The translations under genes and the position numbers were made by a program. A model generated the notes under the pieces. The model was not told the origin of the DNA. It saw nothing but the letters and a program-made list of their open reading frames with translations, and searched no databases. Below, in pieces: positions 29,708-46,083 of a stretch of 62,812 nt of DNA; within the stretch, counting starts at the first letter, position 1; every line of letters starts with the position of its first letter. Origin of the DNA: Desulfurococcales archaeon (GTDB lineage: Archaea; Thermoproteota; Thermoprotei_A; Sulfolobales; Acidilobaceae); contig WAKG01000085.1 in the NCBI GenBank assembly GCA_015523445.1, positions 1 through 62,812 on the forward strand, written 5' to 3'.

Positions 29708-29986
29708 TCTAATCCTAATCTTTGTAATATAAATTGTAAAATTTATAATTTATCAGATAACATCATAATTACAATAATTTTTAATTATATAATAAAAAAT
29801 TAAATAAAATATTTCTAAAGTCGCGGGGGTAGTTTACTTGCTTGCCTTGTTTTCACGTTACTAGATACTATAGACTTTTAGTTATTATGACTCTCTGTGG
29901 TTAAAGTTTAGACGACAAGTCACCTAGTGACCATTAATGCCCTTAACGCTACACGTAGGTATATAGTTGTAGGGGTGGCTATGTGA
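29708..29986. other. Extremely AT-rich non-coding left boundary of a low-GC insertion, containing a candidate promoter for the ATPase gene
   Basis: Composition collapses immediately after the nuoN stop (for example taaattgtaaaatttataatttatc and aataatttttaattatataataaaaaattaaataaaat). The element GTATATAG at 29959-29966 lies about 25 nt upstream of ATG 29987. Confidence 0.6.
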
Positions 29987-31480
29987 ATGACTAAGGCTAG
30001 GCATAAAGCCTCTAAGAAAAGGAAAACGAGTCCACTATATATGATATCAAAAATAAAAATAAAAAATTTTAAAAACATAAAAGAAACAGATATTACTCTA
30101 TTGCCTGGCGTAAATATTTTAGTGGGCCCTAATGCAAGTGGTAAAACTAGTATTTTGGAAGCAACATATTTCCTTTATAAAGCGTTAATAGATGCTGCCG
30201 AAAAGACTCCCTATCGCCCTCATATTCCTGAATATTGGAGTGGATTAGATCTCATACATGGCAAAGATCCAAATAAGAATATAGAAATAGGAATAACATT
30301 AAATGTATATTTACCATCTAATAAAAATGATAAATGGTGCCATGAAACGATAGAAGGAGTTGTGGTATTTGGATATGATGCACAGCGGGATACAATCTTG
30401 CCAATCGAATATAATTTTCTAATAAGTAATTATTTATATTTAAAAATAAATACTAACTCTATAGAAATTATAATGAATAAAGAATCCTGGGAAGCATCCG
30501 GCAAACCTGGCCGTAATAGTGCATCGTCAATAATTGAGAAAAAGAATAAAGTTATACTTACATATAATATAGATCCAAGAAGAATAACATCAGTCTTTCT
30601 TCATCCAAGAGCTATAATATCTATGTATGAAACAGATTTTCATATTATTAATTATGCAATTAAGAAGAAAGGTGATAACAGGTCATCTTATAAAGTTAGC
30701 TTTATAAGGTTTCCCCTCTTGGATATTGAAATACCTGTTGTGTTAAGGCCCTTTACTGAGTGTTCCGAAGAAGCCAAGGGAATACCCGTTTCATGGGACA
30801 ATATGTTGTTAAACTTTTTGCTTAGTAAGGTAGATTATCTAGATCCTTCACTTGCTATATCATTATTATTTGATGCCATTCGTAAAATTGTATTTTTGCG
30901 ACATCCCGATGCGGGTGCTCTTCGCGAGCCTAGGCCTTTTACTGGAAGCAATAGATTGAATCCAAGGGCTCAGAATCTCGCAGAAGTTCTCTTAACCCTT
31001 CATGGCAGGCTCGGACGTATGCCAGAGAGACTTGAGGAACTCATCTCTAAGGCATTTCCCGAATTTAGGGTTTGGGTTGACTCAAAGTTTGGCCGTGTCG
31101 TATTGATGTCTGAATGGAGAGGTATAGAGATGCCTCCTCCAAACCTTCCAGATGGCCTCATAAAAACTCTGGCAATAGGTGCGGCTATTGAGCTAGGTCC
31201 TAGTTTATTGCTTATAGATGAGATAGAGAACAGTCTGCATGCTAATCTATTAGAAATCATTATCGATGAATTAAACCAGTTACCGGTCCCCGTGATAGCA
31301 GCTACACATAGTCCTATTCCTGTTGATATTGTTGGACCTGAAAGGACTATTGTAGTCTTATCTGAAAGAGATGGAGTAGTAGTTGAGAGGATAAGAGATC
31401 CGGTGAAACTTAGAAAATCCTTAGCAGAGCATGGTGTTACTTTCAGTGACTATATTTATGGGGTGACAGTTAAAGATTGA
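29987..31480 (+). CDS. ABC/SMC-type P-loop ATPase (AAA_21/OLD-ATPase-like), candidate defence ATPase
   Basis: N-terminus MISKIKIKNFKNIKETDITLLPGVNILVGPNASGKTSILEA (Walker A at 30125-30151). Signature-like PDGLIKTLAIGAAI. Walker B SLLLIDEIENSLH (D at 31217-31219). H-loop IAATHSP. The likely true start is the internal ATG 30041. Confidence 0.8.
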   Translation: MTKARHKASKKRKTSPLYMISKIKIKNFKNIKETDITLLPGVNILVGPNASGKTSILEATYFLYKALIDAAEKTPYRPHIPEYWSGLDLIHGKDPNKNIEIGITLNVYLPSNKNDKWCHETIEGVVVFGYDAQRDTILPIEYNFLISNYLYLKINTNSIEIIMNKESWEASGKPGRNSASSIIEKKNKVILTYNIDPRRITSVFLHPRAIISMYETDFHIINYAIKKKGDNRSSYKVSFIRFPLLDIEIPVVLRPFTECSEEAKGIPVSWDNMLLNFLLSKVDYLDPSLAISLLFDAIRKIVFLRHPDAGALREPRPFTGSNRLNPRAQNLAEVLLTLHGRLGRMPERLEELISKAFPEFRVWVDSKFGRVVLMSEWRGIEMPPPNLPDGLIKTLAIGAAIELGPSLLLIDEIENSLHANLLEIIIDELNQLPVPVIAATHSPIPVDIVGPERTIVVLSERDGVVVERIRDPVKLRKSLAEHGVTFSDYIYGVTVKD

Positions 31481-32019
31481 ACTATAGTTTGCGTATAGTT
31501 GCTGTGGAGGATACGTATGGCGTCGGGTTCCACAATGAGCTGATATCGTGGCTTATAGGCTCGAGTATCTTGTGCAATAGCCGCCCTAGGATTAGAAGGA
31601 TGCCTGCTAAAAAGTGTAATCATGCTCTCTATAGAAAGCTTGTTGGCATAGCTCTGGCTAAAGCATTTAATAATTGGAAGATATTAGTTGTAATCGATTC
31701 TGAAGGCAGGGCCCCAGAGGAGGCTTCAAGGCAGGACGTATTATCCCACATTCAAAAAGGAGTTGAGGAGCACTTTCGCGTTGCCGTTGTAGAGCCCCTC
31801 CATGAAGCGTGGGTTTGTCTGGGTCTCGGAGGCCCTAGGGCCATCTGTAGATCTGGAAAGGGTGCTATCAGATTTATAGAGACTACTCTGGGAGTTAGGT
31901 ACGAGAAGAGATTACTCGAGAAGATACCGAAAATGCGGGAATTTACATTTTCAAGGCTTCTTGAGGAACGTGATTTTCAAGTATACATCCAAGGCTTGAA
32001 GTGGCTCCTGGATTGTTGA
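31477..32019 (+). CDS. Small TOPRIM-like (DUF4276/RloB/DUF4435-like) protein, putative nuclease partner of the ATPase
   Basis: TTG start overlaps the ATPase TGA (TTGA), preceded by GGGGTGA. Motif order: RIVAVEDTYG (E11 at 31507-31509), KILVVIDSEG (D74 at 31696-31698), VAVVEPLHEAWVCLG. This E...DxE/D...ExW arrangement is the pattern I recall for small TOPRIM-like partners of AAA_21 ATPases. Confidence 0.5.
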   Translation: MNYSLRIVAVEDTYGVGFHNELISWLIGSSILCNSRPRIRRMPAKKCNHALYRKLVGIALAKAFNNWKILVVIDSEGRAPEEASRQDVLSHIQKGVEEHFRVAVVEPLHEAWVCLGLGGPRAICRSGKGAIRFIETTLGVRYEKRLLEKIPKMREFTFSRLLEERDFQVYIQGLKWLLDC

Positions 32020-32159
32020 GAATATGCTAAATCAGTAGGTATCTTAGCTAGCCTTACATTTTTAGATTTAGATCTATAGTGTCTGTAGTTTTTAAGCTTG
32101 TGTTTACCAACTGTACATTTCCTACATGTCTCACTACTATAGCCCTTAGCCTGCTAATA

Positions 32160-33263
32160 GTGGCTGGGGGCTTAGAGTTGAGGCCTAGGGAGCTGCTGGA
32201 GAGGCTAGCCGATAAGGTGCGGGAGGACAAGGTTCTGGGGGGTATGACTCCTAGGCCGCCGCCTGACGTGTTGGAGGTTTGCCGTCTTTACTCTTGGCAG
32301 AATATGGGTGATCCCGAGTCTTACACGGCCTCTAGGGAGGCGGCTAGTTACATAGTCTCTACCGCGAGCCTAGCTGTGTTTGGCATGGAATATCCGGGCT
32401 GGGTGACCAGCGGGGCGAGCGAGGGGAACCTGCTGGCTCTTTATGCGCTCCGGGAGATGGGATACAGTAAGGTCCTCTACTTCCAGTCGGCTCACTACTC
32501 TATACCGAAATCTGCTAGGATACTCGGCATGAGGGCTGAGCCGCTACCCGTGGCAGGGGGCTACGAGCCGCTCCTAGGCGAGCTCAAGTCCAGGCTTAGG
32601 GAGGGTGACATAGTTGTGGCCACTGTGGGCACCACTGAGACCGGGTATATTGACCCGGTGCTTGAGGTGGCGGAGACTGCGGAGGCCCGGGGGGCTGTGG
32701 TCCATGTTGACGCGGCCTTCGCAGGCCCCATAATGCGATACCTAGGCGATGGTAAGGTGCCTAGGAGGCTGAGAGGGGCGGTTGCAAGTATTGTTATGGA
32801 TATGCATAAGATCCCGGAGGCCCCCGCAGGGGTCGGCCTACTGCTGGCTAGAGACAGGGAGTTTATAGAGTTCCTATACCATAGTGCGCCCTACATACCC
32901 TCGGGCCGCCAATTCGGGGTTCTCGGGACCAGGAATGGGGGTCCCGTGGTGGCTGCTGCCTACGCCCTCTCTAAGATGGTTGAGTATGGTGTTGAGAGGC
33001 TGGCCTCAGAGCTGATGAGGGCCTCCGAGACGCTGGTATCAGTGCTGGAGCCCCACGGTTATGGAGTGCTTCACGGGGTGGAGACACCTATACTATGCCT
33101 TATACACCCCAGCCACAACAGTGTCTTCATGAGGCTAGGTGAGATGGGCTATAGAGCCTACAGGTGCCTCGGCGGTAGGGGGGTTAGGATGGCTGTTATG
33201 CCACACCTACTACCTGAGCTCGGCGAGGTGGCTAGGATCCTTGCCAGGGCAGCAGGGGGATGA
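32160..33263 (+). CDS. mfnA: PLP-dependent group II decarboxylase (MfnA-like tyrosine/aspartate decarboxylase)
   Basis: GWVTSGASEGNLLAL, VHVDAAFAGP, and the lysine motif MDMHKIPEAPAGVGLL...GTRNGGP. The track ORF starts at 32079, but its first ~27 codons lie in AT-rich DNA. GTG 32160 or TTG 32178 are more plausible starts. Confidence 0.8.
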   Translation: MAGGLELRPRELLERLADKVREDKVLGGMTPRPPPDVLEVCRLYSWQNMGDPESYTASREAASYIVSTASLAVFGMEYPGWVTSGASEGNLLALYALREMGYSKVLYFQSAHYSIPKSARILGMRAEPLPVAGGYEPLLGELKSRLREGDIVVATVGTTETGYIDPVLEVAETAEARGAVVHVDAAFAGPIMRYLGDGKVPRRLRGAVASIVMDMHKIPEAPAGVGLLLARDREFIEFLYHSAPYIPSGRQFGVLGTRNGGPVVAAAYALSKMVEYGVERLASELMRASETLVSVLEPHGYGVLHGVETPILCLIHPSHNSVFMRLGEMGYRAYRCLGGRGVRMAVMPHLLPELGEVARILARAAGG

Positions 33264-33266
33264 GGT

Positions 33267-34028
33267 ATGGAGGGTTTGGACGAGTTCAAGAAGGCTATAG
33301 CTAAGTATGGCCACTTCTTCAAGCATGCTAGGGTTGATAAAGCCCAGGCCATAAGCGTGGAGGAGATCCAGCAGACCATCGCCTCCAGGGCCCGGGTAGA
33401 ACTGGATACAGGTAGAAGCCTCGAGGAGAACGTGGAATATCTTAACTCCAAGGGGCTCCTAGCCCAGTGGGCGGCTGAGATCGGTGGTAGAATAGGGGAT
33501 AAGGTGGATAACCCGGGTAAGGCCCTGGAGGCTGCGCTGGAGGGGAGGCTGGAGGAACAGGGGGCAAGGGCAATGCTACTGGCGATACAAGCAGTGGCCA
33601 GGTCCTATGCCGACAAGCTCCTAGAGAGGGGTGTAGGCTACGAGCCCTCTGCCAGATGCCCCGTGTGCGGCCTTGAGAGCAGGACCATGGTTAGGAGGGG
33701 TAGGTGGTTTAACATGATATGCCACTTCTGCGGGTACGAGTGGAGGGTGTCCAACAGGATGGTGTGCCCCTACTGTGGGGAATCCAACCCCGTGGCAGTG
33801 GGAGTCTATGGGGATAAGGCGAGGAGGGTTATGCTGGCCAAGTGCCACACCTGCAACTCTACCTGGAGGGTTGTTATGGACGAGACGATCAGAGCCCCCA
33901 GGATACTACTCCCCCTGATCGCCCTCAAGGCCGAGCAGTTCCAGGTCTTCGCCAACCTCGGCAGCGGTAGAGGAGACGCAGGCCTGGAATGGAGCCAGAT
34001 ACATGCCGAGGGTGGCTATGAAGAGTAG
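33267..34028 (+). CDS. FdhE-like four-CxxC zinc/iron-binding protein (paralogue 1)
   Basis: CPVCG-x19-CHFCGYEWRV-x5-CPYCG-x23-CHTCNSTWRV reproduces the FdhE rubredoxin-like arrangement (CPVCG...C..C..EW.V.R..C..C...C..C). Confidence 0.6.
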   Translation: MEGLDEFKKAIAKYGHFFKHARVDKAQAISVEEIQQTIASRARVELDTGRSLEENVEYLNSKGLLAQWAAEIGGRIGDKVDNPGKALEAALEGRLEEQGARAMLLAIQAVARSYADKLLERGVGYEPSARCPVCGLESRTMVRRGRWFNMICHFCGYEWRVSNRMVCPYCGESNPVAVGVYGDKARRVMLAKCHTCNSTWRVVMDETIRAPRILLPLIALKAEQFQVFANLGSGRGDAGLEWSQIHAEGGYEE

Positions 34029-34415
34029 CGGCCTATAGGCCTGGGAGCACCGCGTCTCTTCTAGGACCTTACCAGTCGTGTACTCCAGGGAGTCCTTGAG
34101 CACCTTGGCAATAAGCAGTACACCGGCTAGGGTGAAGAATAGCCCGGTTAAGGCGCTTGACACGAAAAGGTTCCTCAGAGTCCTAACCCTACCGGTCCTG
34201 GTAAGGTCCTCAAACCTCTTTACATGTAGCAGCGTATAGATCTCGAACATGCCCCCTACAAGGGCCATGCCCACAGAGGTAGATGTCAGTATAGACTGGA
34301 ACGGAGGACTGGGAAGTATTGACCCGAGGACGGCAACCCATATTGATGAGGCCATGAGTACTGGGCCAGCTATACTAGCCCTCTCCAGACCATATTCATC
34401 CACCCGCTCCACCAC
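33906..34415 (-). CDS. Small integral membrane protein (about 4 TM), last gene of the NurA/HerA/MBL operon
   Basis: Hydrophobic segments AGPVLMASSIWVAVLGSIL, VGMALVGGMFEIYTLL, SALTGLFFTLAGVLLIAKVL and LLFIATLGMYLAPF. The start overlaps the MBL gene end by 20 nt. The 3' end overlaps the convergent FdhE-like gene. Confidence 0.5.
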   Translation of the reverse strand: MVERVDEYGLERASIAGPVLMASSIWVAVLGSILPSPPFQSILTSTSVGMALVGGMFEIYTLLHVKRFEDLTRTGRVRTLRNLFVSSALTGLFFTLAGVLLIAKVLKDSLEYTTGKVLEETRCSQAYRPLLFIATLGMYLAPFQACVSSTAAEVGEDLELLGLEGDQGE

Positions 34416-35397
34416 CCACCACCGGCCTGGCGAAGGACCTTATACCTAGAACCCTCTCCAGGTATCTAGCTGTAAACCACGCGTCTTTCCCCCTATAAGC
34501 ATCCACTACAACCATTCTAGGCGAGGCCTCCCTCACGTACTCCACGATCTCCCTAAACGTGGCGTGGTCGCTGAAGGAGACATTATACACGTTATCCGCA
34601 ACCCTAGCGGCCGGGGCCCTCAGCTCCCACCCCGTCAACACTATATGGGTCCCTGGGAGCCTCCTCTTACCCCTAGACCTTGAGGCGTGCATGAAGAGGA
34701 CCACCGACTCCCCATGCTCCCTCCCAGTGTAAACCCTCACATCATCCAGCTGGTACCCGTAGAACTCCGCCGCGACCCTGGCGAGCTTCACGGTCTTCTC
34801 ATCAGCGATGAAGGGATAGGTTACACCCCGCCTCCTAAGCTCTACCATTACCTCCTGAAGCTTCCCATTGTACCCATAGACCCACACAGGGCCCCGGGAT
34901 ATGTTATCCTCTATCAGGCTCACCAGGGCTGCCAGGGCGTCCCACTCCCCCCACCTCCTCTGTAGCCTAGGGCTCCCATAGGTAGCGTCTATAACTAGCA
35001 CGTCGAGGCCTTGCATGGGAGGGGTGCCTGGCATCTTAAAGTCACCCGTATACCCTACCACTCCACCCCTGCACTCGACGAGGACCTGGCTACTACCCGC
35101 TATATGCCTGGCAATCTTTAGCTCTAGGACCTCGTCCTCCAAAGCTATCCTCCTATCATAGGGGAGCTCCAGCCTCTTCGCCTCTGGCACTTTCTGGCCA
35201 AGGATCTCGAGGAACCTGAAGGTAGTTGGCGTGGCTATTATGAAGAGGCTCTCCCTCACGCTCCTCGAGAGGCCCATAGTGTGGTCTGAGTGGGCGTGGG
35301 TGACGACCCTATAGGGCCTAGGCCAGAACGAGTCTGCAACCACCCCCTCCCCAAGCAGCACAGCACCCCTGCCAGCAACATCAGCAGTGCATGCCAT
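34396..35397 (-). CDS. Short beta-CASP-type metallo-beta-lactamase-fold nuclease
   Basis: HxHxDH as VVTHAHSDHTMG, later H (IARHIAGS) and D (YTGDFK). beta-CASP-like motif A is VIDATYGSP and motif B is SFSDHATFREIVEYV. 333 aa. Confidence 0.75.
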   Translation of the reverse strand: MACTADVAGRGAVLLGEGVVADSFWPRPYRVVTHAHSDHTMGLSRSVRESLFIIATPTTFRFLEILGQKVPEAKRLELPYDRRIALEDEVLELKIARHIAGSSQVLVECRGGVVGYTGDFKMPGTPPMQGLDVLVIDATYGSPRLQRRWGEWDALAALVSLIEDNISRGPVWVYGYNGKLQEVMVELRRRGVTYPFIADEKTVKLARVAAEFYGYQLDDVRVYTGREHGESVVLFMHASRSRGKRRLPGTHIVLTGWELRAPAARVADNVYNVSFSDHATFREIVEYVREASPRMVVVDAYRGKDAWFTARYLERVLGIRSFARPVVGGGAGG

Positions 35398-35457
35398 AGC
35401 TACTATCCGCCCCAGGTTGGCATAAGGGGCCCCCGGTAGTTATATGGGGTGAAACAC

Positions 35458-37614
35458 CTATCCCGCCAGCCTCAGCCTATCCACCATAACCAGTAGGGGT
35501 ACCCGCCTCTCTGGCGCTGCCAGGCCGGTTACAAGTGCCTCCCCCATACTAGGCTCTAGGTCGGGTAGCCTATCGACTATATCGCTAGCAGCACTCTCTA
35601 CCCCCCTCTTTATCGTTGACAGGTCGTCAGGGTTAGTTGTCCTCAAGAGTATGCTGGACGCCGTCTGGCTAAGCACGCCGGGGTCCACGAAGGCTGGCCT
35701 CTGGGTTACTAGCCACATACTCAACCCCCACTTCCTCCCCTCCCTGGCTACCCGTAGGAGTGATGCCTTGCTGGCCCTCTCCACCCCGGCCGGGGCTAGG
35801 TTGTGTGCCTCCTCCACGACAAGCACGGTTAGCCTCCTAGGATCGTAATCTCCCACGTGTAGATTGAACAGCCTCCTTATCAGGGTTGAGAGTAGCAGAT
35901 CCACGTTGCCAGTGCTGGGCGGGGCTAGGTGCACTATGGAGAAGCCCTCCATAAGCCTGCTCATAAGTGCATCGAATATGAGAGGATCCACCACGTCGCT
36001 GGTCATACCAGCTACCTTACGGAGCCTCCTGAGCACTCCACTCAATATGTGATCACTGTACTCGGTAGTCCTCAGATAGTATATAGCATCAGACAGCCGT
36101 GCCCTCGCCTCCCCCACGCCATCTGGGCTCCCAAGGAGGCTACAGAGCGCCTGCTTCTCCCCCGCTCTGGCTGGATCGGCGTATCCAAGCCTGTAGGAGA
36201 GCCAGGCAAGGTAGCGGAGGAGGGGGAAGAAGTACTTCCTGCCGCTCTTGGCATCTCCAGCCAGTATGATGCCCAGCTCGTCTTCAGGCTTCTTATCTTG
36301 GGCGCCGCACCAAAGTATCATAGCGTCGAGGATCTTCCCAGCCCTACCTTCGGCGTCTCTCCTGGTCGATATGCCTCCGGTGAGCCTTCTGTTGAGGTGT
36401 GCATCTAGCAGAGCGTTCATGAGGGTGACCCCATAGATGTCATGGCCACTGTAGAGGTCTAGGGCTGATGCTAGGTCGGATACTATTAGGGGGAAGTACT
36501 CGCTGGTGGCCCCGCTAACCTCGATCATCTCCTCCACATCCATGAAGCCGGGCAGGGGGAGGAGTATAACCAGGCTCCTGCTATCCCTGATCAGCCTGTA
36601 AGCATCATTATACCTAGCCTTGGAGGGCTGGAGCCCCGAGCAGCCTGGGGTGGCCCTTGACATAGCCCTATCCTTGTCGAAAAAGGCCAGCACATCTACA
36701 CTCGAGCCTAGCCTTGGGGTCAGGGAGAGGCTGCAGGCCATATCAGCAAGTCCATTCCACAGGTACTCCCTCTGCACTTGAGCTCCTGCACGGGAGGCCT
36801 CGTATGGTACTATGATAGTGAGGCGCCCCGGCTGCCTGCCTCCGCCATACTTCTCTGGCATCATCACAGCGTCTAGGAGGGGCACCGTGTCCTCCCTTAG
36901 GTAGGGGTACCCGGTGTATTCCCCGGCTATGTCGAATACTATTATCCCGCCCCTAGGGTAGCCTATCCTATCCCTCCTCGAGGAGACCTCGTATACCAGC
37001 CTCTTCACGGTCTCCGTCTTACCGCTACCCGTCTGGCCCAGTATTGATAGGTGGGTTGTTAGCCTGTCTGGGTTCAGGTAGATCCTGACCTCCCTATTGT
37101 AGCTTAGCCTGCCCAGGTAGAGGCCGCTCTCAGAGTAGTCCCCTCCGAGCCGGTGGTGGAGGAGGCTCTCAAGCCTCAAAGGGTCGGGATACTGGATCCT
37201 GCTGAAGGGCCGGGGCGGCCTGTCATAGGGTTCCAGCCTCTCCCCATCGCCAGCCCTTACGACGTGGCCTAGGACGTTCAGCTCGACCTTCATTATACTG
37301 CTCCACCTGACTAGCTCCTGGCCGGGGCTCATTATCTCCTCCAGCACCCTGACAGCATCCTCCAGCCTGGTGGCTCCTATGGACTCGTAGATCCTTCTGA
37401 GCCTCTCAACGTCTAGGGCCGGGTGGGGAGTCTCCTCCTTCACATCTGTGATCATGGCTAGGTACCTGTCCCCCGAGGTCCTATCGCTGACCTCGACGAG
37501 CGTGCCGTACCTTACCACAGCCTCGGCCGGCCTCAGGAGTATGCCCTGCACGCGGCCATAAGCCTCTATACTAGTCGTGAAGCCAGTAAGCCTATCCTCA
37601 GCCACGATACCCAC
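35458..37614 (-). CDS. HerA/DUF87-family (FtsK-HerA superfamily) ATPase, long form
   Basis: Walker A ILGQTGSGKTE (aa 191-201), HerA-typical IIVFDIAGEY, Walker B LTVLVVEEAHNLAP (aa 595-608), then REGRKWGLSMWLVTQRP. N-terminal HAS-barrel-like region. Confidence 0.85.
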   Translation of the reverse strand: MGIVAEDRLTGFTTSIEAYGRVQGILLRPAEAVVRYGTLVEVSDRTSGDRYLAMITDVKEETPHPALDVERLRRIYESIGATRLEDAVRVLEEIMSPGQELVRWSSIMKVELNVLGHVVRAGDGERLEPYDRPPRPFSRIQYPDPLRLESLLHHRLGGDYSESGLYLGRLSYNREVRIYLNPDRLTTHLSILGQTGSGKTETVKRLVYEVSSRRDRIGYPRGGIIVFDIAGEYTGYPYLREDTVPLLDAVMMPEKYGGGRQPGRLTIIVPYEASRAGAQVQREYLWNGLADMACSLSLTPRLGSSVDVLAFFDKDRAMSRATPGCSGLQPSKARYNDAYRLIRDSRSLVILLPLPGFMDVEEMIEVSGATSEYFPLIVSDLASALDLYSGHDIYGVTLMNALLDAHLNRRLTGGISTRRDAEGRAGKILDAMILWCGAQDKKPEDELGIILAGDAKSGRKYFFPLLRYLAWLSYRLGYADPARAGEKQALCSLLGSPDGVGEARARLSDAIYYLRTTEYSDHILSGVLRRLRKVAGMTSDVVDPLIFDALMSRLMEGFSIVHLAPPSTGNVDLLLSTLIRRLFNLHVGDYDPRRLTVLVVEEAHNLAPAGVERASKASLLRVAREGRKWGLSMWLVTQRPAFVDPGVLSQTASSILLRTTNPDDLSTIKRGVESAASDIVDRLPDLEPSMGEALVTGLAAPERRVPLLVMVDRLRLAG

Positions 37615-37618
37615 ACCC

Positions 37619-39223
37619 CTACGACATATACCTTCTCCGGGTGGCGAAGTCTCTTATGAAAGTGGAGTAGGGCACTATCCTCCTCCCCAGGCTCTCTAGG
37701 AGGCTGGCCAGGGCCGCGGCCTCCCACTCGTTAACCCTACTCCTCTGGTCAACAACTATAAGGGGGGAGGGTACGCCGAAGTGTGTGGCCTGGCTCTGCG
37801 TGTATATATGCCTGGCAAGGTCTACACTGTCCCCACCGGGGATATACTCGAGCCTTATGGGGTGCCTGACCTGCACCAGCTCGGCCAGCTCCCTCGGCGT
37901 CATGCCCATCCTCTCGGCATGCCTTGCCAGGGTCTGGCATGAGGGTATGCGGTCTGTGAAGATGTATGTGAACATGACCTCCGGCAGGCCGGAGAGGCTC
38001 CTCTCAGCCGGGATTCCAGTGGCGTCCTCCAGCCTGTTCGACCCGTAGCTAGCCACTGCGGGAGGCTCGACCAGGGTCTTCTTGCTGAGTGGAGGGGTCC
38101 CAGCCAGCTCCTCCGGGCCGAATAGGTACCTGTACAGCATCATGACGTCAACATCACTCTTAACACCAAGCCTCTCAAGAGCCTGGCCACGGTATATTGC
38201 TAGGACGAGATCGCCCCTACCCTGCTTGGAGGCCTCCTCCTCCAACACCTCCCAGGGCGGCCTAGAGGAGGAGAAGAGGCTGGCCAGCATGGATTCTAGG
38301 AGCGCAGCCATATCATGGGCAGTCCTGCCAGGCTCCTCCACGAGGTCCTCGGCACACCCAGCTCTGGATATAGCCCTCTTTATAAGGGCATCAGCGTGGA
38401 GCCCCCGCGGGTACGACTCCATAACTCCGAGTAGCGTGTAGGTTGAGAGCTGCCTACTCCTACTAAGATCCTCAGAGACAGCTGCAATAGTGGCCCCGTC
38501 AACTCTGCCTAGCCTGGAGAGGAGGGCCACCGCCGCCAGCCCGGGGTTGCACGCCTCGCCATGACCACCCCTCCTAACTATAGACTCGTCCCTAACACTA
38601 TACACGACCTCCAGGGGAAGGCCAGAGTATCTGAGCACAGCCTCCACACTCCTACACGGCATGTCGAAGACCCTATTGAAGTACGTGCCAAACTGCTGTA
38701 ACAGGGCCCCATGCCTCACGACAAGCCTACGCCCCCCAGGCGAGCCAGGAGGCTGCTCGCCCAGAGCTATTGAGAGCATTATACCCAGCTCGGCTAGGTA
38801 GAGGCTGGCCTGCCTCTGCCTCTCGCCCCCCACAACGGGTAGGAAGGAGTAGCCCCCACTACCGATCAAGGGGTAGAGGATGCGCTCTCTAACCCTATCC
38901 CCTGCCCAACACCTCTCCAGCACTGCAGCCTTGAGCACGAAGCCCTCAACACCGCCACGAGTCCCCCTATACCCCCTGGCTCCCACATCTATGAAGTACT
39001 CGCACTCCCACCTAACCCCGAGAAGAGGCTCTACTTGGCCAAGACCGCTCCAGCCACCCCGGATCAGGCTAGCCCCGCCAAACTCCTCCACACCCCTAGC
39101 GGCTAGTGCCAGGGCAAGCCCTCCCCACTCCGGCGAAGCATCGCCAAGCTCTGTATACGCCAATTCCATAAACCCCCAATAAGGTGAGTATGGATGATTA
39201 AGGATAATTAGGAAATCCAACAC
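37619..39223 (-). CDS. NurA-like nuclease-domain protein (tentative), upstream partner of the HerA-like ATPase
   Basis: Stop lies 4 nt before the HerA-like start. C-terminal THFGVPSPLIVVDQRSRV resembles the NurA GYPYxLxxAHxxA block. Candidate N-terminal YFIDVGARG and central RRLVVRHGALLQQF resemble the NurA xDGS / DGSL strands, but with substitutions. The call is by context plus weak motifs. Confidence 0.4.
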   Translation of the reverse strand: MLDFLIILNHPYSPYWGFMELAYTELGDASPEWGGLALALAARGVEEFGGASLIRGGWSGLGQVEPLLGVRWECEYFIDVGARGYRGTRGGVEGFVLKAAVLERCWAGDRVRERILYPLIGSGGYSFLPVVGGERQRQASLYLAELGIMLSIALGEQPPGSPGGRRLVVRHGALLQQFGTYFNRVFDMPCRSVEAVLRYSGLPLEVVYSVRDESIVRRGGHGEACNPGLAAVALLSRLGRVDGATIAAVSEDLSRSRQLSTYTLLGVMESYPRGLHADALIKRAISRAGCAEDLVEEPGRTAHDMAALLESMLASLFSSSRPPWEVLEEEASKQGRGDLVLAIYRGQALERLGVKSDVDVMMLYRYLFGPEELAGTPPLSKKTLVEPPAVASYGSNRLEDATGIPAERSLSGLPEVMFTYIFTDRIPSCQTLARHAERMGMTPRELAELVQVRHPIRLEYIPGGDSVDLARHIYTQSQATHFGVPSPLIVVDQRSRVNEWEAAALASLLESLGRRIVPYSTFIRDFATRRRYMS

Positions 39224-39548
39224 TAGCCTGAGGCTACTATACCATTACATCAAAACAAAGGTAATACCGGCAAGCCTATGCAACATAGACCTAGAGCATC
39301 TTTAACAAGTCTACGGAAAGAAGTATCAAAGCCCATAAACTAAGCTTCTACCTAATAATGCAAGGGTAGATAGATGAATAGGAGATTAGTAATGATTTAG
39401 CGGGTTTTTGGCCTGAAGTTACCCATAGATCACTTGAACTATACTTTCATCTGGCCTCCTTCTGTATCTTAAAGATGGTTACTTCAGCTGTAATTTCAGG
39501 TATCCGTTTAAGGGAAAGTTTTTAAGGGCTCAACGTAAATACATTCGA
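39224..39548. promoter_or_regulatory. AT-rich divergent intergenic region between the NurA/HerA operon and the 609-aa wHTH gene
   Basis: 325 nt of non-coding, low-GC sequence separating two divergent transcription units, with several A/T-rich TATA-like elements (for example cctaataatg and gtttttaaggg). Confidence 0.45.
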
Positions 39549-41378
39549 ATGGCGAGCACGCTCTGGTGTGATCGGGGTGAAAATAGCGTGAGTAAGAGTA
39601 AGAAGACAAGTAAGATAACACTAGGCGAGGCACATGCCCGGATAATCCTAGCCGTGGGCGCATACCAGGAGCTGGGTGTAGAGCCGGAATACGGCGATAT
39701 CGCGAGGGCCACGAACAGGAGCCTCTCTAGGATCAGGGCAGTAGTCTCGGAGCTACTAAGGAGCAACCATAATCTTATCAAGAAGGTACCCGACACCCCA
39801 GTCAAGATACTCCTCACCGAGAAGGGGAAGAGGGTATACAAGGAGCTGAAGGCATCAATCTTGAAGAACGCAGAGGAGGTAATCGAGCCATCCAAGCTAA
39901 TCAAACTATTCGAAGACAGAATATATACTGATAGCAGGCAGAAGAAGTCCTTCGGTTCCGTGGAGGTAGCAATAGATACCGTAGTCCCTGCACTGAAGCT
40001 TAGGGAAGTCACGGAGAACCTGAAGAGAGGCTTCGGCCCAAGCCTACTGTACGGGTTATCGATAGAACTGGCAACAGCAACTCAGATAGCATCAGCCTCT
40101 GGTATAGGAAGTATAAGCTTTAACGAGCTATCGAGGCAGGTGATCAACGTCCCAATCAGGGTGGCCCGCGTCACGGATGTATCACTGCCACCACATATAG
40201 AGGGGAGCATAATCCCCATGGAGAGGGCGCGCGGGGCACTACGCTCCGTAACTATATGGCCGGAAAAGTCTAGGGGACGTGACATATACAGCTACGCCGT
40301 TGAGGCCGATGCCCTCGGGCTAGTTAAAGTAGCTAAAAGCGGGAAAGACGAGGTATACCTACAGCCCAAGCTCAATACTGGAATAGACGTCATAGACAAG
40401 CTCTCGGCCATAGGTTTCGATGTACTAGCATCTAATCCGACAAGGGCATGGCTACCCATACTATCAGTATACGGCGATGTAACCACACAGTTCCCAACAA
40501 AAGAAGAAGTGCTCAGCGGGAGCACACCCCTACTCGGCATACTCGGCGATGTAGTAGGCCCTAGCAAGGTGGAGAGATGGACCAAACACATGCTTGGACT
40601 CCAGAAAAGCCTCAATATACCGGCCCTAAACGTAGGGGCACCATATAAGACACTCGGCATAATCGATGTTATCAAGGTTGGCGACGAGAGCAGACTATTA
40701 TCACTCACGGTAGCACGTAGGATTATCGGAAGAAATGTAAAAAACCTACTAGAAGAAGAAGGATACAACATTAATCAGATATACAGGACAGTTGAGGAGA
40801 AGATCAGGAGGATCCTAGAGGATACAGGAGCATACGCCTATGTACTAAAAGAGTTTATAAGGAATGGGTTCATGGATAGAATCCAAGCTCTAGAGGTAGC
40901 AAGGCGACACATAGACAGCAACCCGGAGAGGATCCTAAAAGACCTAGAGAAGCTGGGGTTCATCTACTCAGTCGGGACCGGATACTATAGCGCATGGACC
41001 ATAACACCGATATACTACGAGGAGGATGAGACTCTGAGGACTCTACTGGCTTGGCTGTCAAAGGAGCTAAGAAGCTTTGGGAACGAGATGTACGAGGAAA
41101 TAATAAGGAAATTAATAGAGAATGGAGAAGTTGATATAGTAAACTTAGAATCCAGAACTTTAATTAGGGTAGTACGTGGTCTATCTATACTAGAAAAAAT
41201 GGGTTTAGTACAATTCATAGGAGATGAAACAGTAAAAGTAACAAGCGATAAGGCTCGCAAACTACTGACAACCGCATATATCGAGAAGAAGCTAGGTGTG
41301 GAAATTGGCTCAATAACACCATACGAACGTAAAAAACTACCTGATATAAAAGAAACTATTATAGATAAACTAAAGTAA
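39549..41378 (+). CDS. Large orphan protein with N-terminal winged-helix (MarR/TrmB-like) DNA-binding domain and further wHTH-like repeats
   Basis: N-terminus EAHARIILAVGAYQELGVEPEYGDIARATNRSLSRIRAVVSELLRSNHNLIKKV...LTEKGKRVYKEL has a wHTH pattern. C-terminal segments (ILKDLEKLGFIYSVG and VVRGLSILEKMGLVQFIG) look like additional winged helices. I see no enzymatic motif. Confidence 0.55.
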   Translation: MASTLWCDRGENSVSKSKKTSKITLGEAHARIILAVGAYQELGVEPEYGDIARATNRSLSRIRAVVSELLRSNHNLIKKVPDTPVKILLTEKGKRVYKELKASILKNAEEVIEPSKLIKLFEDRIYTDSRQKKSFGSVEVAIDTVVPALKLREVTENLKRGFGPSLLYGLSIELATATQIASASGIGSISFNELSRQVINVPIRVARVTDVSLPPHIEGSIIPMERARGALRSVTIWPEKSRGRDIYSYAVEADALGLVKVAKSGKDEVYLQPKLNTGIDVIDKLSAIGFDVLASNPTRAWLPILSVYGDVTTQFPTKEEVLSGSTPLLGILGDVVGPSKVERWTKHMLGLQKSLNIPALNVGAPYKTLGIIDVIKVGDESRLLSLTVARRIIGRNVKNLLEEEGYNINQIYRTVEEKIRRILEDTGAYAYVLKEFIRNGFMDRIQALEVARRHIDSNPERILKDLEKLGFIYSVGTGYYSAWTITPIYYEEDETLRTLLAWLSKELRSFGNEMYEEIIRKLIENGEVDIVNLESRTLIRVVRGLSILEKMGLVQFIGDETVKVTSDKARKLLTTAYIEKKLGVEIGSITPYERKKLPDIKETIIDKLK

Positions 41379-41514
41379 AACTTTATTTATTATTAATTTA
41401 TAATAAATTAAAATTTTTATATAATCATTTTAACTATTCATATTAGTATTAATGATGGATATGACGGGCTTCTTAGCTAGTCGTGGTATATGATGTCTTA
41501 TAATGAGTTTTTAA
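41379..41514. other. AT-rich spacer with T-tracts (likely terminator) and a 7-bp inverted repeat AATTTAT-a-ATAAATT at 41395-41409
   Basis: The sequence taaaactttatttattattaatttataataaattaaaatttttat lies directly after the stop at 41376-41378. Archaeal terminators are oligo-T tracts. Confidence 0.4.
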
Positions 41515-42108
41515 TTGTATGTGGTGTTTGATGACTTGTCTCCACTATATACTCTGGAGTGGCACTTGGGTCGTGGTGGTGGTTGGCTTCATTGTAGGTG
41601 TTTATGGGTGATTGGGGATGCTAGGCTGTTGTTGCTACTTCCCTGCAATCCGGGGGTTAGGATGGGGGACTATACCCTTGGCCAGAACTGGAGGGTTGTG
41701 CTAGGTGTTGTGGATGACCTAGTAGGCTCCGGCATACTCGACCTTGCAGCAATCGATAGCTGCAAGCCGGGAGTTGTAAGGTGGGGGGAGGAGCATGTGT
41801 ATAGGTGGTGTGATGTGAGGCCCCTGTGGCACGAACTCTATAAGAGGGAGCCCTGGAGGCTGGAGCTGCTGGTGGCTGGGGTTGCTGAGGACCTTAGGAG
41901 TCTGGCCCTAGAGTATAGGGCTCTGGCGGCCTACGTCAATGTGAGGGCCTATAGGACCGCCTTGGAGCTTGCCATGGCCAGGTCTGGGGTTAAGGTCCAC
42001 ATCTTGGGGCCCCCTAGGCTGAGCCCCCTGAGCTATAGGAGTAGGAGGAGCCTGGAGGCGCTGCGCAGGGGGCTCATGGGCCTGGCTAGGGCTACGGTCA
42101 CGCTCTAG
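41515..42108 (+). CDS. Hypothetical protein, upstream partner of the TGT/DpdA-like gene
   Basis: GC-rich 197-aa ORF (TTG start). The internal ATG 41662, preceded by GGGGG, would give 148 aa. It is separated from the next gene by 9 nt containing GGGGTGG. No recognisable motif. Confidence 0.45.
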   Translation: MYVVFDDLSPLYTLEWHLGRGGGWLHCRCLWVIGDARLLLLLPCNPGVRMGDYTLGQNWRVVLGVVDDLVGSGILDLAAIDSCKPGVVRWGEEHVYRWCDVRPLWHELYKREPWRLELLVAGVAEDLRSLALEYRALAAYVNVRAYRTALELAMARSGVKVHILGPPRLSPLSYRSRRSLEALRRGLMGLARATVTL

Positions 42109-42117
42109 GGGTGGGTT

Positions 42118-42891
42118 GTGGTGGTCAGGGTCTTCCTTGTGTTGCCGGATCTCTCACGCTCTAAGGCGGAGGCTCTGGCTAGGCTGGGCGGGGTGGATGT
42201 GCTTCTTAGCTATACTATATTGAGGTGGAAGCCCTCGGCCCTAGAGAGGCTCCGGGTGTTGAGGAGTAGGCTGGGAGATGTTATGCTAGACTCCGGGGCC
42301 TACCACCAGGGGAGGGGTGAGGCATGGGTGGACCCTGCCAGCTATGCTAGCTTCATCCAGGATAATAGGGGTCTCTTCGCCTACGTGGTCGCCCCCGACC
42401 ATCCCGGGGATCCAGGGGAGACGCTTGCCAGGACTCTCAGCTTCATGGAGCACTACCACGGGGAGTTCATACCCGTAGTCCAGCCCGGCCCGGGTCACGG
42501 GCCCCACACTCATATAGCGATGGTGGAGGAGCTTGACCGCGCCGGGATACTGGACAGGGCTCCTAGGGTAGGAGGAGGAGTACTGGTAGGGGTTGGGGGC
42601 CTTGACGGGGAGAGGAGGAGGGTGAGCTACGTGGCAACCCTTGTGGGAGAGGCTGGTAGGGAGTATCCATGGCTCAGGCTCCATCTATTCGGGGCGGGAG
42701 CTAGGATCCTAGGAGGCCTGGCAAGGAGGGGGCTACTAGATCAGGTTTACAGCGTTGACTCCAGCGGGTGGCTCGCGGAGATCATGTGGAGGAGGCGCAC
42801 GGTGCACAATGCAGATACGCCGCTAGAGGCTAACACTAGGGCTATAGAGACATATATAGAGAAGGTTAGGCAGGCGATAGAGGAGGCCTAG
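42118..42891 (+). CDS. tRNA-guanine-transglycosylase-fold protein resembling DpdA (7-deazaguanine DNA/RNA transglycosylase)
   Basis: VMLDSGAYHQG...VDPASYASFIQDN...YVVAPDHPGD compares with the DpdA MGDCGAFSY...Y..F.......VSVDH pattern and the TGT DSGGFQ motif. LRLHLFGAGAR compares with HLLGxG, and VYSVDSSGWL with the second catalytic-Asp block (FDSxS). 257 aa, short for a tRNA TGT. Confidence 0.5.
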   Translation: MVVRVFLVLPDLSRSKAEALARLGGVDVLLSYTILRWKPSALERLRVLRSRLGDVMLDSGAYHQGRGEAWVDPASYASFIQDNRGLFAYVVAPDHPGDPGETLARTLSFMEHYHGEFIPVVQPGPGHGPHTHIAMVEELDRAGILDRAPRVGGGVLVGVGGLDGERRRVSYVATLVGEAGREYPWLRLHLFGAGARILGGLARRGLLDQVYSVDSSGWLAEIMWRRRTVHNADTPLEANTRAIETYIEKVRQAIEEA

Positions 42892-44471: not shown

Positions 44472-45344
44472 TTGCCCCTATGCATAGTGCTTGCTGGAGG
44501 CGCCTCCCTCCGCTTCCCCGGGGGGAAACTATCATCGAGGCTGCTGGGCGAGCCCCTACTCCTTAGAGTGGTTAGGGCCCTTGAGTCGAGTGGCCTCTGT
44601 AGGGAGCTAGCAGTTTCAACTAGCCCAGTAGCTCTAGGGGAGGTGGATAGACTGCTAGAAGGCGCCTACGACGTGGTCGTAGACTATAGCTGGCTGCCCT
44701 GCAGGGGGCCCTCGAGGGGAATCGCCTCCGCAACAATCCACTACGCCCCACGGGAGATACTGCTGGCTGCAGGAGACATGGCGTGGCTCACCCCCCAGCC
44801 ACTGGAGGCTCTAGTAGATGAGGCTAGGAGGAGGGGGGCCACTGCAGCGGCTCCAATGTGGGCCACTGGCTTCCTACAGACGCTGGCAGGATATATACGG
44901 GAGCCTTGGCTGGCTGTGGAGTCCTGCCTTAGGAGGGGCCGCTTGGCGAGGCCTAGTGACGTGTATCGATCCGCCTCGAAGCCTCTCGTGATAGGCTCGG
45001 CCCATCTGGGGGATAGGGATGGTAGGACCTTCATGAGTGTAAACACTGTGGAGGAGATGCTTAGGCCCCGGCCCGACCCTCCAGGTCATAGTGTTACTGA
45101 TGCCTCTGAGGCATCCGGGATTCATAGGATGGCCCTGGCCAGGTCCTCCGCCAGCCTGGCTGGAGGCCTCGTGTACTACTGGCTGGAGGCGCGGTGGTAT
45201 AGAGAGGCTGGGATCCTCCACCTTGCCCGGCACGCTTGGCAGGATTACTGCTGGGCCCTGCATGCTGCTGGGTATAGTGGTGGGCCTTCCGGTAGATCCT
45301 CGTTAATGCCTTGCAGAGTTAGGACCTTGCAAGCTACCGGATAG
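44472..45344 (+). CDS. mobA: Molybdenum cofactor guanylyltransferase MobA with ~90-aa C-terminal extension
   Basis: N-terminus PLCIVLAGGASLRFPGGKL is the MobA LAGGxSxRxG motif, followed by LLAAGDMAWL. TTG start. The 3' end overlaps the convergent fdhD by 42 nt. Confidence 0.75.
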   Translation: MPLCIVLAGGASLRFPGGKLSSRLLGEPLLLRVVRALESSGLCRELAVSTSPVALGEVDRLLEGAYDVVVDYSWLPCRGPSRGIASATIHYAPREILLAAGDMAWLTPQPLEALVDEARRRGATAAAPMWATGFLQTLAGYIREPWLAVESCLRRGRLARPSDVYRSASKPLVIGSAHLGDRDGRTFMSVNTVEEMLRPRPDPPGHSVTDASEASGIHRMALARSSASLAGGLVYYWLEARWYREAGILHLARHAWQDYCWALHAAGYSGGPSGRSSLMPCRVRTLQATG

Positions 45345-46079
45345 CAGGACTATGCCCCTTCCCCTACCATTCTTGGCATTGGAGACTAGTGTGAGGCCCA
45401 GCCTCCTAGCGGCCTCGACCCCACTCATCAGGGGGCCCCTCATAGTTACTATCAGCCCTACTCCAGCACTGGCTAGCCTGTAGACCATGTCTGCCGAGGC
45501 CCTCCCGGTTGTCACGGCAGCTAGGCGGGGCTTATCTAGCAGCCCGTGTACCAGGGCTAGCCCTATAGCCTTGAGCACAGCCGTATGCCTACTAGTATCG
45601 TGGGCCACCACTGTGACCCCCTCGTCTAGGCTGTATATTGCAGCTGTATGGGCTGAGATCCTGTACCTTACCCCGGCCGTCCTACCCGAGAAGTCCTTGA
45701 ATAGATGCATAACGTCGCCCCACGTATATAGATCCCTGGCCAGGGGCTTGTATGTCGCTATGCCCGCTGGCGCCCCGCACTCACCCGGGTTTAGTAGCAT
45801 GGGCTTGGGAGCTATCGCCCTTAGCCCCATCACCTTTATGGAGCCCCCTAGGACCTCCACCCTCACTCGGCTAGGATCTATGCCGGGATGCTCACCCGCT
45901 GCCAGGCCTAGGCCTGCCTCCTCGAGGTTGACCGGCATCGCCACTATATCTCCGTAGAGTACTCCATCAACGTATACCTTGTAAAGAGAGTCGATCGCTA
46001 TCCTGACACCCTCGATCTCCCTGTAGAAGACCCCTGTCTCTCCTTCTACCCTAAACTTGGTGACGCTACTCAGGCTCAC
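45303..46079 (-). CDS. fdhD: Formate dehydrogenase accessory sulfurtransferase FdhD
   Basis: HDTSRHTAVLKAIGLAL...VTTGRASADMVYRLASAGVGLIVTMRGPLMSGVEAARRLGLTLV, the typical FdhD C-terminal half. Confidence 0.85.
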   Translation of the reverse strand: MSLSSVTKFRVEGETGVFYREIEGVRIAIDSLYKVYVDGVLYGDIVAMPVNLEEAGLGLAAGEHPGIDPSRVRVEVLGGSIKVMGLRAIAPKPMLLNPGECGAPAGIATYKPLARDLYTWGDVMHLFKDFSGRTAGVRYRISAHTAAIYSLDEGVTVVAHDTSRHTAVLKAIGLALVHGLLDKPRLAAVTTGRASADMVYRLASAGVGLIVTMRGPLMSGVEAARRLGLTLVSNAKNGRGRGIVLLSGSLQGPNSARH

Positions 46080-46083
46080 GGCT

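Follow-up and report, generated by a model that had tools for sequence, protein, structure and literature searches.

This study concerns a pair of adjacent genes, here called X and HerA, in a 62,812-nt stretch of DNA (the window) from a Desulfurococcales archaeon of the Acidilobaceae (assembly GCA_015523445.1, contig WAKG01000085.1, positions 1-62,812). The chromosome is that of a hyperthermophilic archaeon, with genes for reverse gyrase, EF-2, Mrp/complex I subunits and tungsten/molybdenum enzymes, and its nearest relatives are metagenome-assembled genomes (MAGs) of Acidilobaceae, also within the Desulfurococcales. The initial annotation of the locus described four tightly packed minus-strand genes, encoding a NurA-like protein (X), a long HerA-type ATPase, a beta-CASP nuclease of the metallo-beta-lactamase (MBL) fold and a small membrane protein, and took them for one system. 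The four open reading frames (ORFs) do lie where it placed them: 37619-39223 for X (534 aa, counted from the first in-frame GTG), 35458-37614 for HerA (718 aa), 34396-35397 for MBL (333 aa) and 33906-34415 for the membrane protein (169 aa). Their spacing is also as described, with a 4-nt gap between X and HerA, a 60-nt gap between HerA and MBL, and a 20-nt overlap between MBL and the membrane protein. The four ORFs are real genes and not chance ORFs, because all of them have conserved homologues elsewhere. Two relatives, L010 and L011, with about 85% nucleotide identity, are colinear with the window through the Mrp genes, a pyridoxal phosphate (PLP)-dependent decarboxylase, a Zn-ribbon protein, the membrane protein, MBL, HerA, X and two further genes, Y and Z. 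Scans of the window found no tRNA, Rfam family, tandem-repeat or CRISPR array of interest.

The X-HerA gene pair

The gene at 35458..37614 on the minus strand, 4 nt downstream of X, encodes a long HerA-type hexameric ATPase/translocase of 718 aa. Its identity as HerA was correctly recognised from the start: it matches DUF87 (PF01935; 3.5e-15, 57 bits against a cut-off of 23.2), HerA_C (24.7 against 22) and the PADLOC HerA model (5.7e-38), and its Walker A and B motifs are intact and invariant in the HerA clade. The HAS-barrel domain (PF09378) is matched weakly (E 0.045; 14.3 bits, cut-off 25.2). The motifs GQTGSGKTE and VVEEAHNLAP, which had been read from the sequence, are present and do not vary among 20 clade members. 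In the PDB, the protein is matched best by T. kodakarensis HerA, the HerAs of anti-phage defence systems and Sulfolobus HerA; its segment between the Walker motifs is about 140 residues longer than that of T. kodakarensis HerA. The PADLOC 'Type III coevolved' HerA model also matches (2.1e-18), and other HerA models score better. Against the equivalogs NF040937, NF040819 (double-strand-break repair), NF042943 and NF042944 (anti-phage), the protein scores 80-99 bits, whereas the cut-offs are 800-970. Because these scores are far below the curated cut-offs, the window HerA belongs to none of the named HerA subfamilies.

The partner of this ATPase, X, was far more difficult to place. No hidden Markov model (HMM) in Pfam, NCBIfam or PADLOC matches X, the same is true of 10 diverse, distant relatives of X, and PF09376 (NurA) is not reached even at E <= 1. 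A search of PDB sequences with an X profile yielded only noise. A word-index search recovered just 8 homologues, and an exhaustive profile search of 1.84 billion representatives defined a family of 44 clusters without producing a bridge from X to canonical NurA. The fold was recognised from predicted structures. A first AlphaFold2 model, built on 8 sequences, was poor (pLDDT 55), yet NurA ranked first among its structural matches; a second model, built on 38 family sequences, reached pLDDT 90.4 and pTM 0.89. When the good model was compared with the PDB by Foldseek, the top 10 matches were all NurA proteins from Sulfolobus, Pyrococcus and Thermococcus, with probabilities of 0.99-1.00; the best was 2ygk_A (E 1.1e-6, target-normalised TM-score 0.54), and RNase H and Argonaute PIWI domains followed in the ranking. 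The suggestion of the initial annotation that the 534-aa protein is NurA-like is thus supported by the Foldseek comparison.

We also compared X with 24 Pfam-positive NurA proteins encoded downstream of ordinary HerA genes in other loci. Profile-profile alignment by hhalign is significant over the C-terminal motif only (E 3.3e-4, 38% probability). In a permissive alignment the five NurA motifs are colinear, with D59 of X aligned with D63, E125 with E119, H151 with D143, E231/D232 with K192/R193, and D472 with D326 (residue numbers of X refer to a 514-aa form). The metal-binding residues of NurA are an Asp in strand 1, a Glu in helix 1, an Asp after strand 4 and a His or Asp in the C-terminal motif. 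Both family alignments show D59, E125, E231 and D472 of X without exception; H151 is almost invariant in one of the two, with Asp in its place in one member. Judged from the model and these motifs, X is predicted to be a remote, remodelled and strongly diverged nuclease of the NurA (RNase H-like) fold, and its catalytic activity, predicted from the conserved residues, is plausible. For X, translation more likely starts at the ATG at 39169 than at the GTG of the ORF that begins at 39223, because this ATG is conserved in the closest relative (L010). The putative gene therefore spans 37619..39169 on the minus strand and would encode 516 aa; homologues in the databases are annotated with 513-525 aa.

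Using the HerA clade as bait, we recovered 31 distinct loci including the window, all from Desulfurococcales or other Thermoproteota. In 31 of 31, the long HerA gene is directly preceded, on the same strand, by an X-family ORF of 488-561 aa. About 45 other Thermoproteota loci (L036-L086) show the reverse order, in which a HerA gene of about 500-560 aa is followed by a Pfam-positive NurA gene of about 370-410 aa, and the two types are never mixed among loci. In two loci of the ordinary type that were checked (L056, L083), the HerA-NurA genes are not adjacent to Mre11/Rad50. Thermoproteota with the ordinary pair may thus carry several HerA-NurA systems. The initial annotation had also set the X-HerA pair apart from the Mre11-Rad50-linked set, and this holds: neither the scanned ORFs of the window nor the annotated neighbourhoods of 13 related loci contain a Mre11 or Rad50 domain.

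The X-HerA family is tiny and patchy, and is restricted to Desulfurococcales and a few other Thermoproteota. An Aeropyrum MAG has an X-HerA pair, though no A. pernix protein was among the matches of the HerA search. X was not found in viral contigs, and of Z a single distant relative lies on a predicted viral contig. Three MAGs have two or three diverged copies of the long HerA gene on separate contigs (L011 and L032; L014 and L026; L031, L033 and L034), which could be true paralogy or binning contamination; the identities of these copies to the window HerA are 93% and 56%, 57% and 35%, and 35%, 54% and 33%, respectively. The neighbourhoods of the relatives vary and include Cas1/Csa1, Csx1, Cas_APE2256, toxin-antitoxin genes of the PIN, ParE, MazE and CcdA types, and an N6/N4 methyltransferase island. 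The defence-like surroundings noted earlier for the window therefore recur among its relatives, which sit among CARF, Csx1, Cas1, toxin-antitoxin and methyltransferase genes. We infer that X-HerA is an accessory, lineage-restricted module rather than a housekeeping resection machine.

One branch of the family is associated with CRISPR signalling. In subclade B, which comes mainly from Pyrodictiaceae and whose HerA proteins are 33-40% identical to that of the window, X-HerA is flanked by CRISPR-signalling genes. A small Crn1-like CARF protein is encoded in all eight subclade-B loci with enough flanking sequence (PADLOC CARF 6.5e-38, cas_Crn1 3.7e-26). Csx1, a CARF-HEPN protein, and Cas_APE2256 are encoded in Pyrodictium delaneyi and in a Pyrodictiaceae MAG, Cas1 and Csa1 are also nearby in the P. 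delaneyi locus, and toxin-antitoxin genes surround several subclade-B loci. The layout in Pyrodictiaceae is CARF-X-HerA-Csx1. The window's own subclade is without CARF and cas genes.

Recurrent and occasional neighbours

Clustering of the neighbours in the 31 loci revealed two small genes, Y (about 165-195 aa) and Z (about 252-284 aa), which recur more often than MBL. In the window they lie beyond a 2.2-kb insertion upstream of X, and they were overlooked when MBL and the membrane protein were chosen as partners, although their link to the pair is the more consistent one. Y and/or Z are present in 15 of 31 loci, in four arrangements. They are divergent upstream of X in the window, L010, L011 and L129; on the same strand as HerA and just downstream of it in L001, L006 and L025, the last with the order HerA-Y-Z; convergent downstream in L003, L012, L015, L017-L019 and L021; and upstream on the same strand in L031, where Z-Y-CARF-X-HerA occupy one strand. 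In five of the convergent loci (L012, L015, L017-L019), HerA and Y are separated by the gene for a conserved protein of about 116 aa that could be assigned to no family (for example L017:12256-12606, minus strand); it is absent from the window.

Y, at 41533..42108 on the plus strand, encodes a small Cys-containing protein; its start codon is uncertain, and the ORF as called mechanically starts within the insertion, at 41515. Members of the family (about 165-190 aa) have invariant Cys44, Cys83 and Cys99 and a D-x-C-K-P-G motif (alignment A8), and Y has no match in Pfam, NCBIfam, PADLOC or the PDB.

Z lies 9 nt downstream of Y, at 42118..42891 on the plus strand, and its 257-aa product resembles tRNA-guanine transglycosylase (TGT) and DpdA (alignment A7). 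All its HMM matches are below threshold (Pfam DpdA E 0.019, in three of eight members; archaeal TgtA E 0.033). A profile of Z found nothing significant in the PDB, where a weak colinear match to Cap10 had E 1.3. Among fetched ORFs, the best outside match of the profile was a Pfam-positive TGT-like protein (E 0.0021, hhalign 63%). The columns D58-S59-G60, D94/P96/P99, G160-G161-L162, H189/G192 and S212/D214 are invariant among Z and two Pfam-TGT-positive proteins, and the corresponding motifs DSG, D.P..P, GGL, H..G and S.D are conserved across 18 diverse Z members. In TGT enzymes, the functional motifs are DSGG[FY], a substrate-binding Asp, GGL, xLxGxG and a nucleophile Asp. Z is thus probably a minimal transglycosylase of the TGT/DpdA superfamily, without the Zn subdomain.

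A second, Pfam-positive TGT-like family of about 346-369 aa lies near X-HerA in three loci. Its members are at L035:12755-13810, L028:15703-16812 (the same as L088:16447-17556), L023:7501-8121 and L086:565-1605; the L023 copy looks fragmented, and in L086 the gene is beside an ordinary HerA-NurA pair. The presence of this family near the pairs indicates an independent repeat of the association between TGT and HerA-NurA.

When the search was started from Z, homologues of at least 50% identity were found to adjoin X-HerA. Homologues of about 43% identity lie in a different, conserved block (L098, L100-L103, L107, L121), which consists of rpl2, a kinase-like gene, MoeA, Z, SAM synthetase, a MobA-like gene and Orc1/Cdc6, with the gene names assigned by eye from the sequences. 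Z of the window is also near MobA-like, FdhD and molybdoenzyme genes (44472-51735). There are hints that the Z family has a non-defence role in some lineages. Some Y-Z pairs adjoin a large protein with an NPPW methyltransferase motif, read by eye, and others are in mobile-element-like contexts. The linkage between Y-Z and X-HerA is thus suggestive, and is not obligatory.

MBL, at 34396..35397 on the minus strand, has the family and PDB sequence matches of an SNM1/Apollo-type beta-CASP MBL exonuclease. Its HAHSDH, DATYG and SDHA motifs, reported in the initial annotation (the first as HxHxDH), are all present in the 333-aa protein. By sequence, the closest solved structures are Apollo/SNM1B (6e-8, residues 31-298), SNM1A and Artemis. 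The model TIGR04122, for the bacterial ligase-associated exonuclease, is matched over nearly the full length (3.9e-19, residues 22-306), and RMMBL and DRMBL are matched weakly. MBL shares with SNM1/Apollo/Artemis and TIGR04122 proteins the same domain layout of about 330 aa, the HxHxDH motif and the beta-CASP motifs; it differs from TIGR04122 in scoring 68.6 bits against an equivalog cut-off of 325 and in having no ligase or Lhr helicase gene nearby.

Linkage of MBL to X-HerA is limited. Of the 31 loci, 6 have MBL no more than 10 kb from the pair, and in four of these it is directly adjacent, downstream of HerA: the window, L010 and L011, which are of the same genus, and the more distant L016, whose HerA is 55% identical. 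In L008, MBL and the membrane-protein gene are 2.6 kb upstream of X-HerA with another gene between, and in L129 MBL is 9 kb downstream of HerA, past a methyltransferase and toxin-antitoxin island. That island (L129:12920-21087) contains an N6/N4 DNA methyltransferase and a CcdA/PIN toxin-antitoxin pair as well as several large ORFs without annotation. The junction of HerA and MBL thus looks like a hot spot for insertions. More than 361 proteins make up the MBL family, among them some from Aeropyrum pernix, Stetteria, Acidilobus, Caldisphaera and Pyrodictium, in contrast to the 44-45 clusters of X and HerA. In a Stetteria locus MBL keeps its Zn-ribbon and Mrp neighbours and there is no X-HerA within 6 kb. 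Compared with L008, MBL is 68% identical, X 39% and HerA 48%, which indicates that MBL evolves more slowly than the pair. MBL is probably a core gene of the Desulfurococcales and not a dedicated component of the module.

The small membrane protein (33906..34415, minus strand) has at least three strongly hydrophobic 19-residue segments, and its start overlaps the MBL stop by 20 nt. It is encoded near X-HerA in 4 of 31 loci, with homologues only in L008, L010 and L011; it pairs with MBL and not with HerA. Convergent to it is the gene for a double Zn-ribbon protein of the Lar/PriA-CRR-like type (33267..34028, plus strand; Lar family 1.4e-7), which is conserved beside MBL in Stetteria (36% identity, E 2e-45). 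The 3' ends of the membrane-protein and Zn-ribbon genes overlap by 123 nt (33906-34028), with overlaps of about 70-100 nt in L008 and L010, and both proteins are least conserved in these overlapping tails. We concluded that MBL, the membrane protein and the Zn-ribbon protein form a core syntenic block that abuts X-HerA incidentally in this lineage. In this genome, the MBL and membrane-protein genes may be co-transcribed with the pair.

Between X and Y, the window has a low-GC, genome-specific insertion of about 2.2 kb (~39291..41532, with approximate boundaries), which is absent from L010 and L011. Its GC content is 0.44, compared with 0.58-0.60 in the flanking genes. It carries a single ORF of 609 aa (39549-41378, plus strand) with a faint winged-helix hint at the N-terminus, no Pfam match and no phage or plasmid homologue. 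Target-site duplications and terminal repeats were sought around the insertion, and nothing convincing was found. The insertion splits a divergent intergenic region which, in the relatives, is about 190 nt long and separates Y-Z from X-HerA. A TATA/BRE-like box, CTAATTATCCTTAAT (39197..39211, minus strand; BRE, B recognition element), lies 28-42 nt upstream of the X ATG and is conserved in L010, and a TATA-like box, CACTATATAC (41543..41552, plus strand), lies upstream of Y and is conserved between the window and L010. From their position and conservation, both boxes are putative promoters, and those of both operons are intact despite the insertion. The initial annotation had placed a 325-nt AT-rich promoter region upstream of X. 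This holds for about 120 nt upstream of X, the only conserved part, in which the TATA-like box lies; the region is largely the edge of the insertion and mostly not ancestral promoter. Both flanks of the locus are insertion hot spots.

Two further features lie beyond the Zn-ribbon gene. A PLP-dependent decarboxylase, MfnA-like, is encoded at 32079-33263 on the plus strand and is syntenic with the Zn-ribbon gene in close relatives. It was considered as a DndA/SspA-type partner and rejected, since it matches MfnA-type decarboxylases at 6e-43, compared with 2e-10 for the weak matches of the DndA/SspA type; its role is probably in metabolism and not in a DNA-sulfur system. The adjacent island at 29720-32088 (37% GC) is present in L010, and other sequence takes its place in L011. 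Its two plus-strand ORFs encode an AAA_15/AAA_21 (AbiEii/OLD-like) ATPase (29987-31480) and an overlapping 180-aa partner (31477-32019) with weak HEC-01B and MAD4 matches, and the gene pair looks like a two-gene defence system.

Relation to known HerA-NurA systems

X-HerA shares its basic architecture with canonical HerA-NurA, whose solved examples are from S. solfataricus (2YGK/4D2I), P. furiosus (3TAI) and T. kodakarensis (9X1L). X has the RNase H-like fold of NurA, the HerA partner has a RecA-like core with a putative HAS barrel, and the genes are adjacent, implying a motor-nuclease complex. However, X is only 10-12% identical to canonical NurA and about 120-190 residues longer, the HerA proteins of the long clade are 710-770 aa compared with about 500-590 aa for canonical HerA, and the gene order is reversed relative to the ordinary pairs, nuclease then HerA, with no adjacent Mre11/Rad50 gene.

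Crenarchaeal HerA/NurA pairs that co-evolve with type III CRISPR have been described (clusters 57/58; PMC6546367), and a nurA-csm6-herA cluster of Pyrobaculum is cited in PMC12977600. The Pyrodictiaceae relatives of X-HerA are likewise a non-canonical pair beside CARF proteins. The window locus and its subclade differ from these pairs in lacking CARF and cas genes, X in matching no PADLOC model, and the link to TGT-like genes is absent from the published description. TdpAB (8WET/8WFD), a phosphorothioate-dependent system of thermophiles, combines a HerA-like and a NurA-like protein in a restriction module tied to DNA modification, which is the logic proposed here. The resemblance is distant only: TdpA is matched at 2e-9 and TdpB by Foldseek at E 0.35 with the low-confidence model of X, TdpB is absent from the top 50 of the good model, and the modification chemistry would differ.

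Defence systems that combine HerA/FtsK with TGT are known besides Dpd, and the BRC system has HerA/FtsK, TGT, GNAT and PglZ (PMC12839542). In these, as in the loci with Y-Z, a TGT-superfamily enzyme is encoded with a DNA-translocating/nuclease restriction machine. Unlike Dpd components, Y and Z match no PADLOC (the Dpd models included), Pfam or NCBIfam family significantly; there are no PglZ, BrxC-like or STAND components as in Dpd/BRC, Z appears from its sequence to be a minimal 257-aa barrel, and Y is a new family. Finally, the SIR2-HerA and DUF4297-HerA anti-phage systems combine a HerA hexamer with an effector, and their HerAs are among the best PDB matches of the window HerA (5e-41 to 1e-32); here, the effector has the predicted NurA fold, the system is archaeal and hyperthermophilic, and HerA is longer.

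Proposed function and alternatives

We lean, by a little, towards the view that X-HerA is an accessory NurA-HerA module for DNA degradation, probably defensive and possibly guided by a TGT-type modification. By analogy with solved HerA-NurA complexes, a dimer of X would cap the HerA hexamer, and ATP hydrolysis would thread duplex DNA through the HerA ring into the nuclease sites, so that DNA would be degraded processively from its ends. Judging from gene context, the target would most likely be foreign DNA. T. kodakarensis HerA-NurA degrades both strands, and an antiviral role has been proposed for it and its role in end resection questioned (PMC12977600); with this precedent, it becomes more plausible that a paralogous pair serves in defence. 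In the Pyrodictiaceae branch, the nuclease may be controlled by type III CRISPR cyclic-oligoadenylate signalling through CARF proteins, as suggested by the CARF proteins that flank the pair. In the window's branch, Y-Z may mark self DNA, or a protein, with a 7-deazaguanine-type base, and unmarked DNA would be attacked; the base exchange could take place on DNA, as in Dpd, or on protein, as with Cap10 in type IV CBASS. It is conceivable, and we put it forward tentatively, that X-HerA and Y-Z together constitute an undescribed archaeal restriction-modification-like system, with sister lineages gated by CARF proteins instead or additionally.

Several observations weigh against a modification-guided defence module. 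X fails every NurA HMM, and it has His in motif III where NurA has Asp and an acidic Glu-Asp in motif IV where NurA has the basic Lys-Arg. The assignment of Z to TGT rests on weak HMM scores and motif colinearity, and its homologues of about 43% identity have a housekeeping-like synteny without Y, X or HerA. Y-Z pairs are also found without X-HerA, and in about half of the X-HerA loci the available flanks contain neither Y nor Z. The 62.8-kb window has no cas gene, CARF gene or CRISPR repeat array. X, HerA, Y and Z have a genome-typical GC content (0.58-0.60 in the genes flanking the insertion) and are stable within the genus, which fits a resident housekeeping function too. The SNM1-like MBL gene is beside HerA in four loci of two lineages, which could mean a shared repair role.

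The last two points are also the strength of a serious rival, in which the pair is a housekeeping repair paralogue, that is, a second end-processing or crosslink-repair machine, perhaps acting with the SNM1-like exonuclease and without any part in defence. Canonical HerA-NurA is classically assigned to end resection, an SNM1/Apollo-family nuclease of the repair type adjoins the pair in several lineages, and many subclade-A neighbourhoods consist of ordinary metabolic genes. Still, we regard this as rather unlikely: the distribution is patchy and narrow, some MAGs have two to three diverged copies, a separate ordinary HerA-NurA pair is widespread in the same taxonomic order, a related branch is tied to CARF/Csx1 and sits among toxin-antitoxin genes, and there is a link to TGT-like genes.

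The link to TGT-like genes could itself be due to a chance neighbourhood, in which Y-Z and X-HerA are independent modules co-localised in a variable region without mechanistic coupling. The Y-Z pairs that stand apart from X-HerA, beside a protein with a type IIG-like methyltransferase motif or in mobile-element-like contexts, are consistent with this, as are the X-HerA loci without Y-Z and the hot spots for insertion on both flanks. On the other hand, the two modules are tightly juxtaposed on the same strand in L025, L001, L006 and L031, their association survives four rearrangements and spans both subclades, and the second TGT-like family replaces Z in other X-HerA loci, so that coincidence, too, seems unlikely to us.

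If the modules are coupled, the base might be attached to a protein and not to DNA. Z, as a Cap10-like enzyme, would then conjugate a deazaguanine to X, HerA or Y and so prime or restrain the nuclease, and DNA would be unmarked. Cap10, a TGT-family enzyme of type IV CBASS, performs nucleobase-protein conjugation in defence (10.1101/2025.04.06.647259); it is the sole semi-specific PDB match of Z, with colinear DSGxY and H.FG...D..W motifs, and Z lacks the Zn-binding subdomain of tRNA TGTs. However, the match to Cap10 (E 1.3) is statistically insignificant, no QueC-like (Cap9) partner was detected, Y matches nothing, and the three Z members that match Pfam DpdA, of the DNA-modifying branch, do so slightly better. 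We therefore consider this variant improbable.

A single system of X, HerA, MBL and the membrane protein, with two nucleases, one motor and a membrane anchor, as first proposed, has in its favour the common strand and tight spacing in the window, L010 and L011, the adjacency in L016 and the DNA-type, SNM1/Apollo-like character of MBL, and is nevertheless equally improbable in view of the rarity of MBL and the membrane protein near the pair, their separation from it in L008 and L129, the far larger MBL family, and the independent synteny in Stetteria and slower evolution of MBL. X-HerA is a conserved pair in 31 of 31 loci and the quartet is not conserved, so that of the initial annotation the NurA-like fold, the non-canonical HerA module and the flavour of defence persist, and the four-gene composition does not. 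This shows that tight gene spacing in a single genome can mislead operon-based inference.

In summary, the analysis defines a predicted NurA-fold family that is wholly missed by annotation libraries, and with it the long HerA that is its dedicated partner, and ties uncharacterised HerA/NurA pairs associated with type III CRISPR to a wider family found without CRISPR as well. It also brings to notice a link between TGT-type base-exchange chemistry and HerA-NurA nucleases. If the accessory module is indeed guided by such a modification, this would be the first mechanism by which an archaeal HerA-NurA discriminates self from foreign DNA, and it would extend deazaguanine-based immunity to hyperthermophilic archaea.

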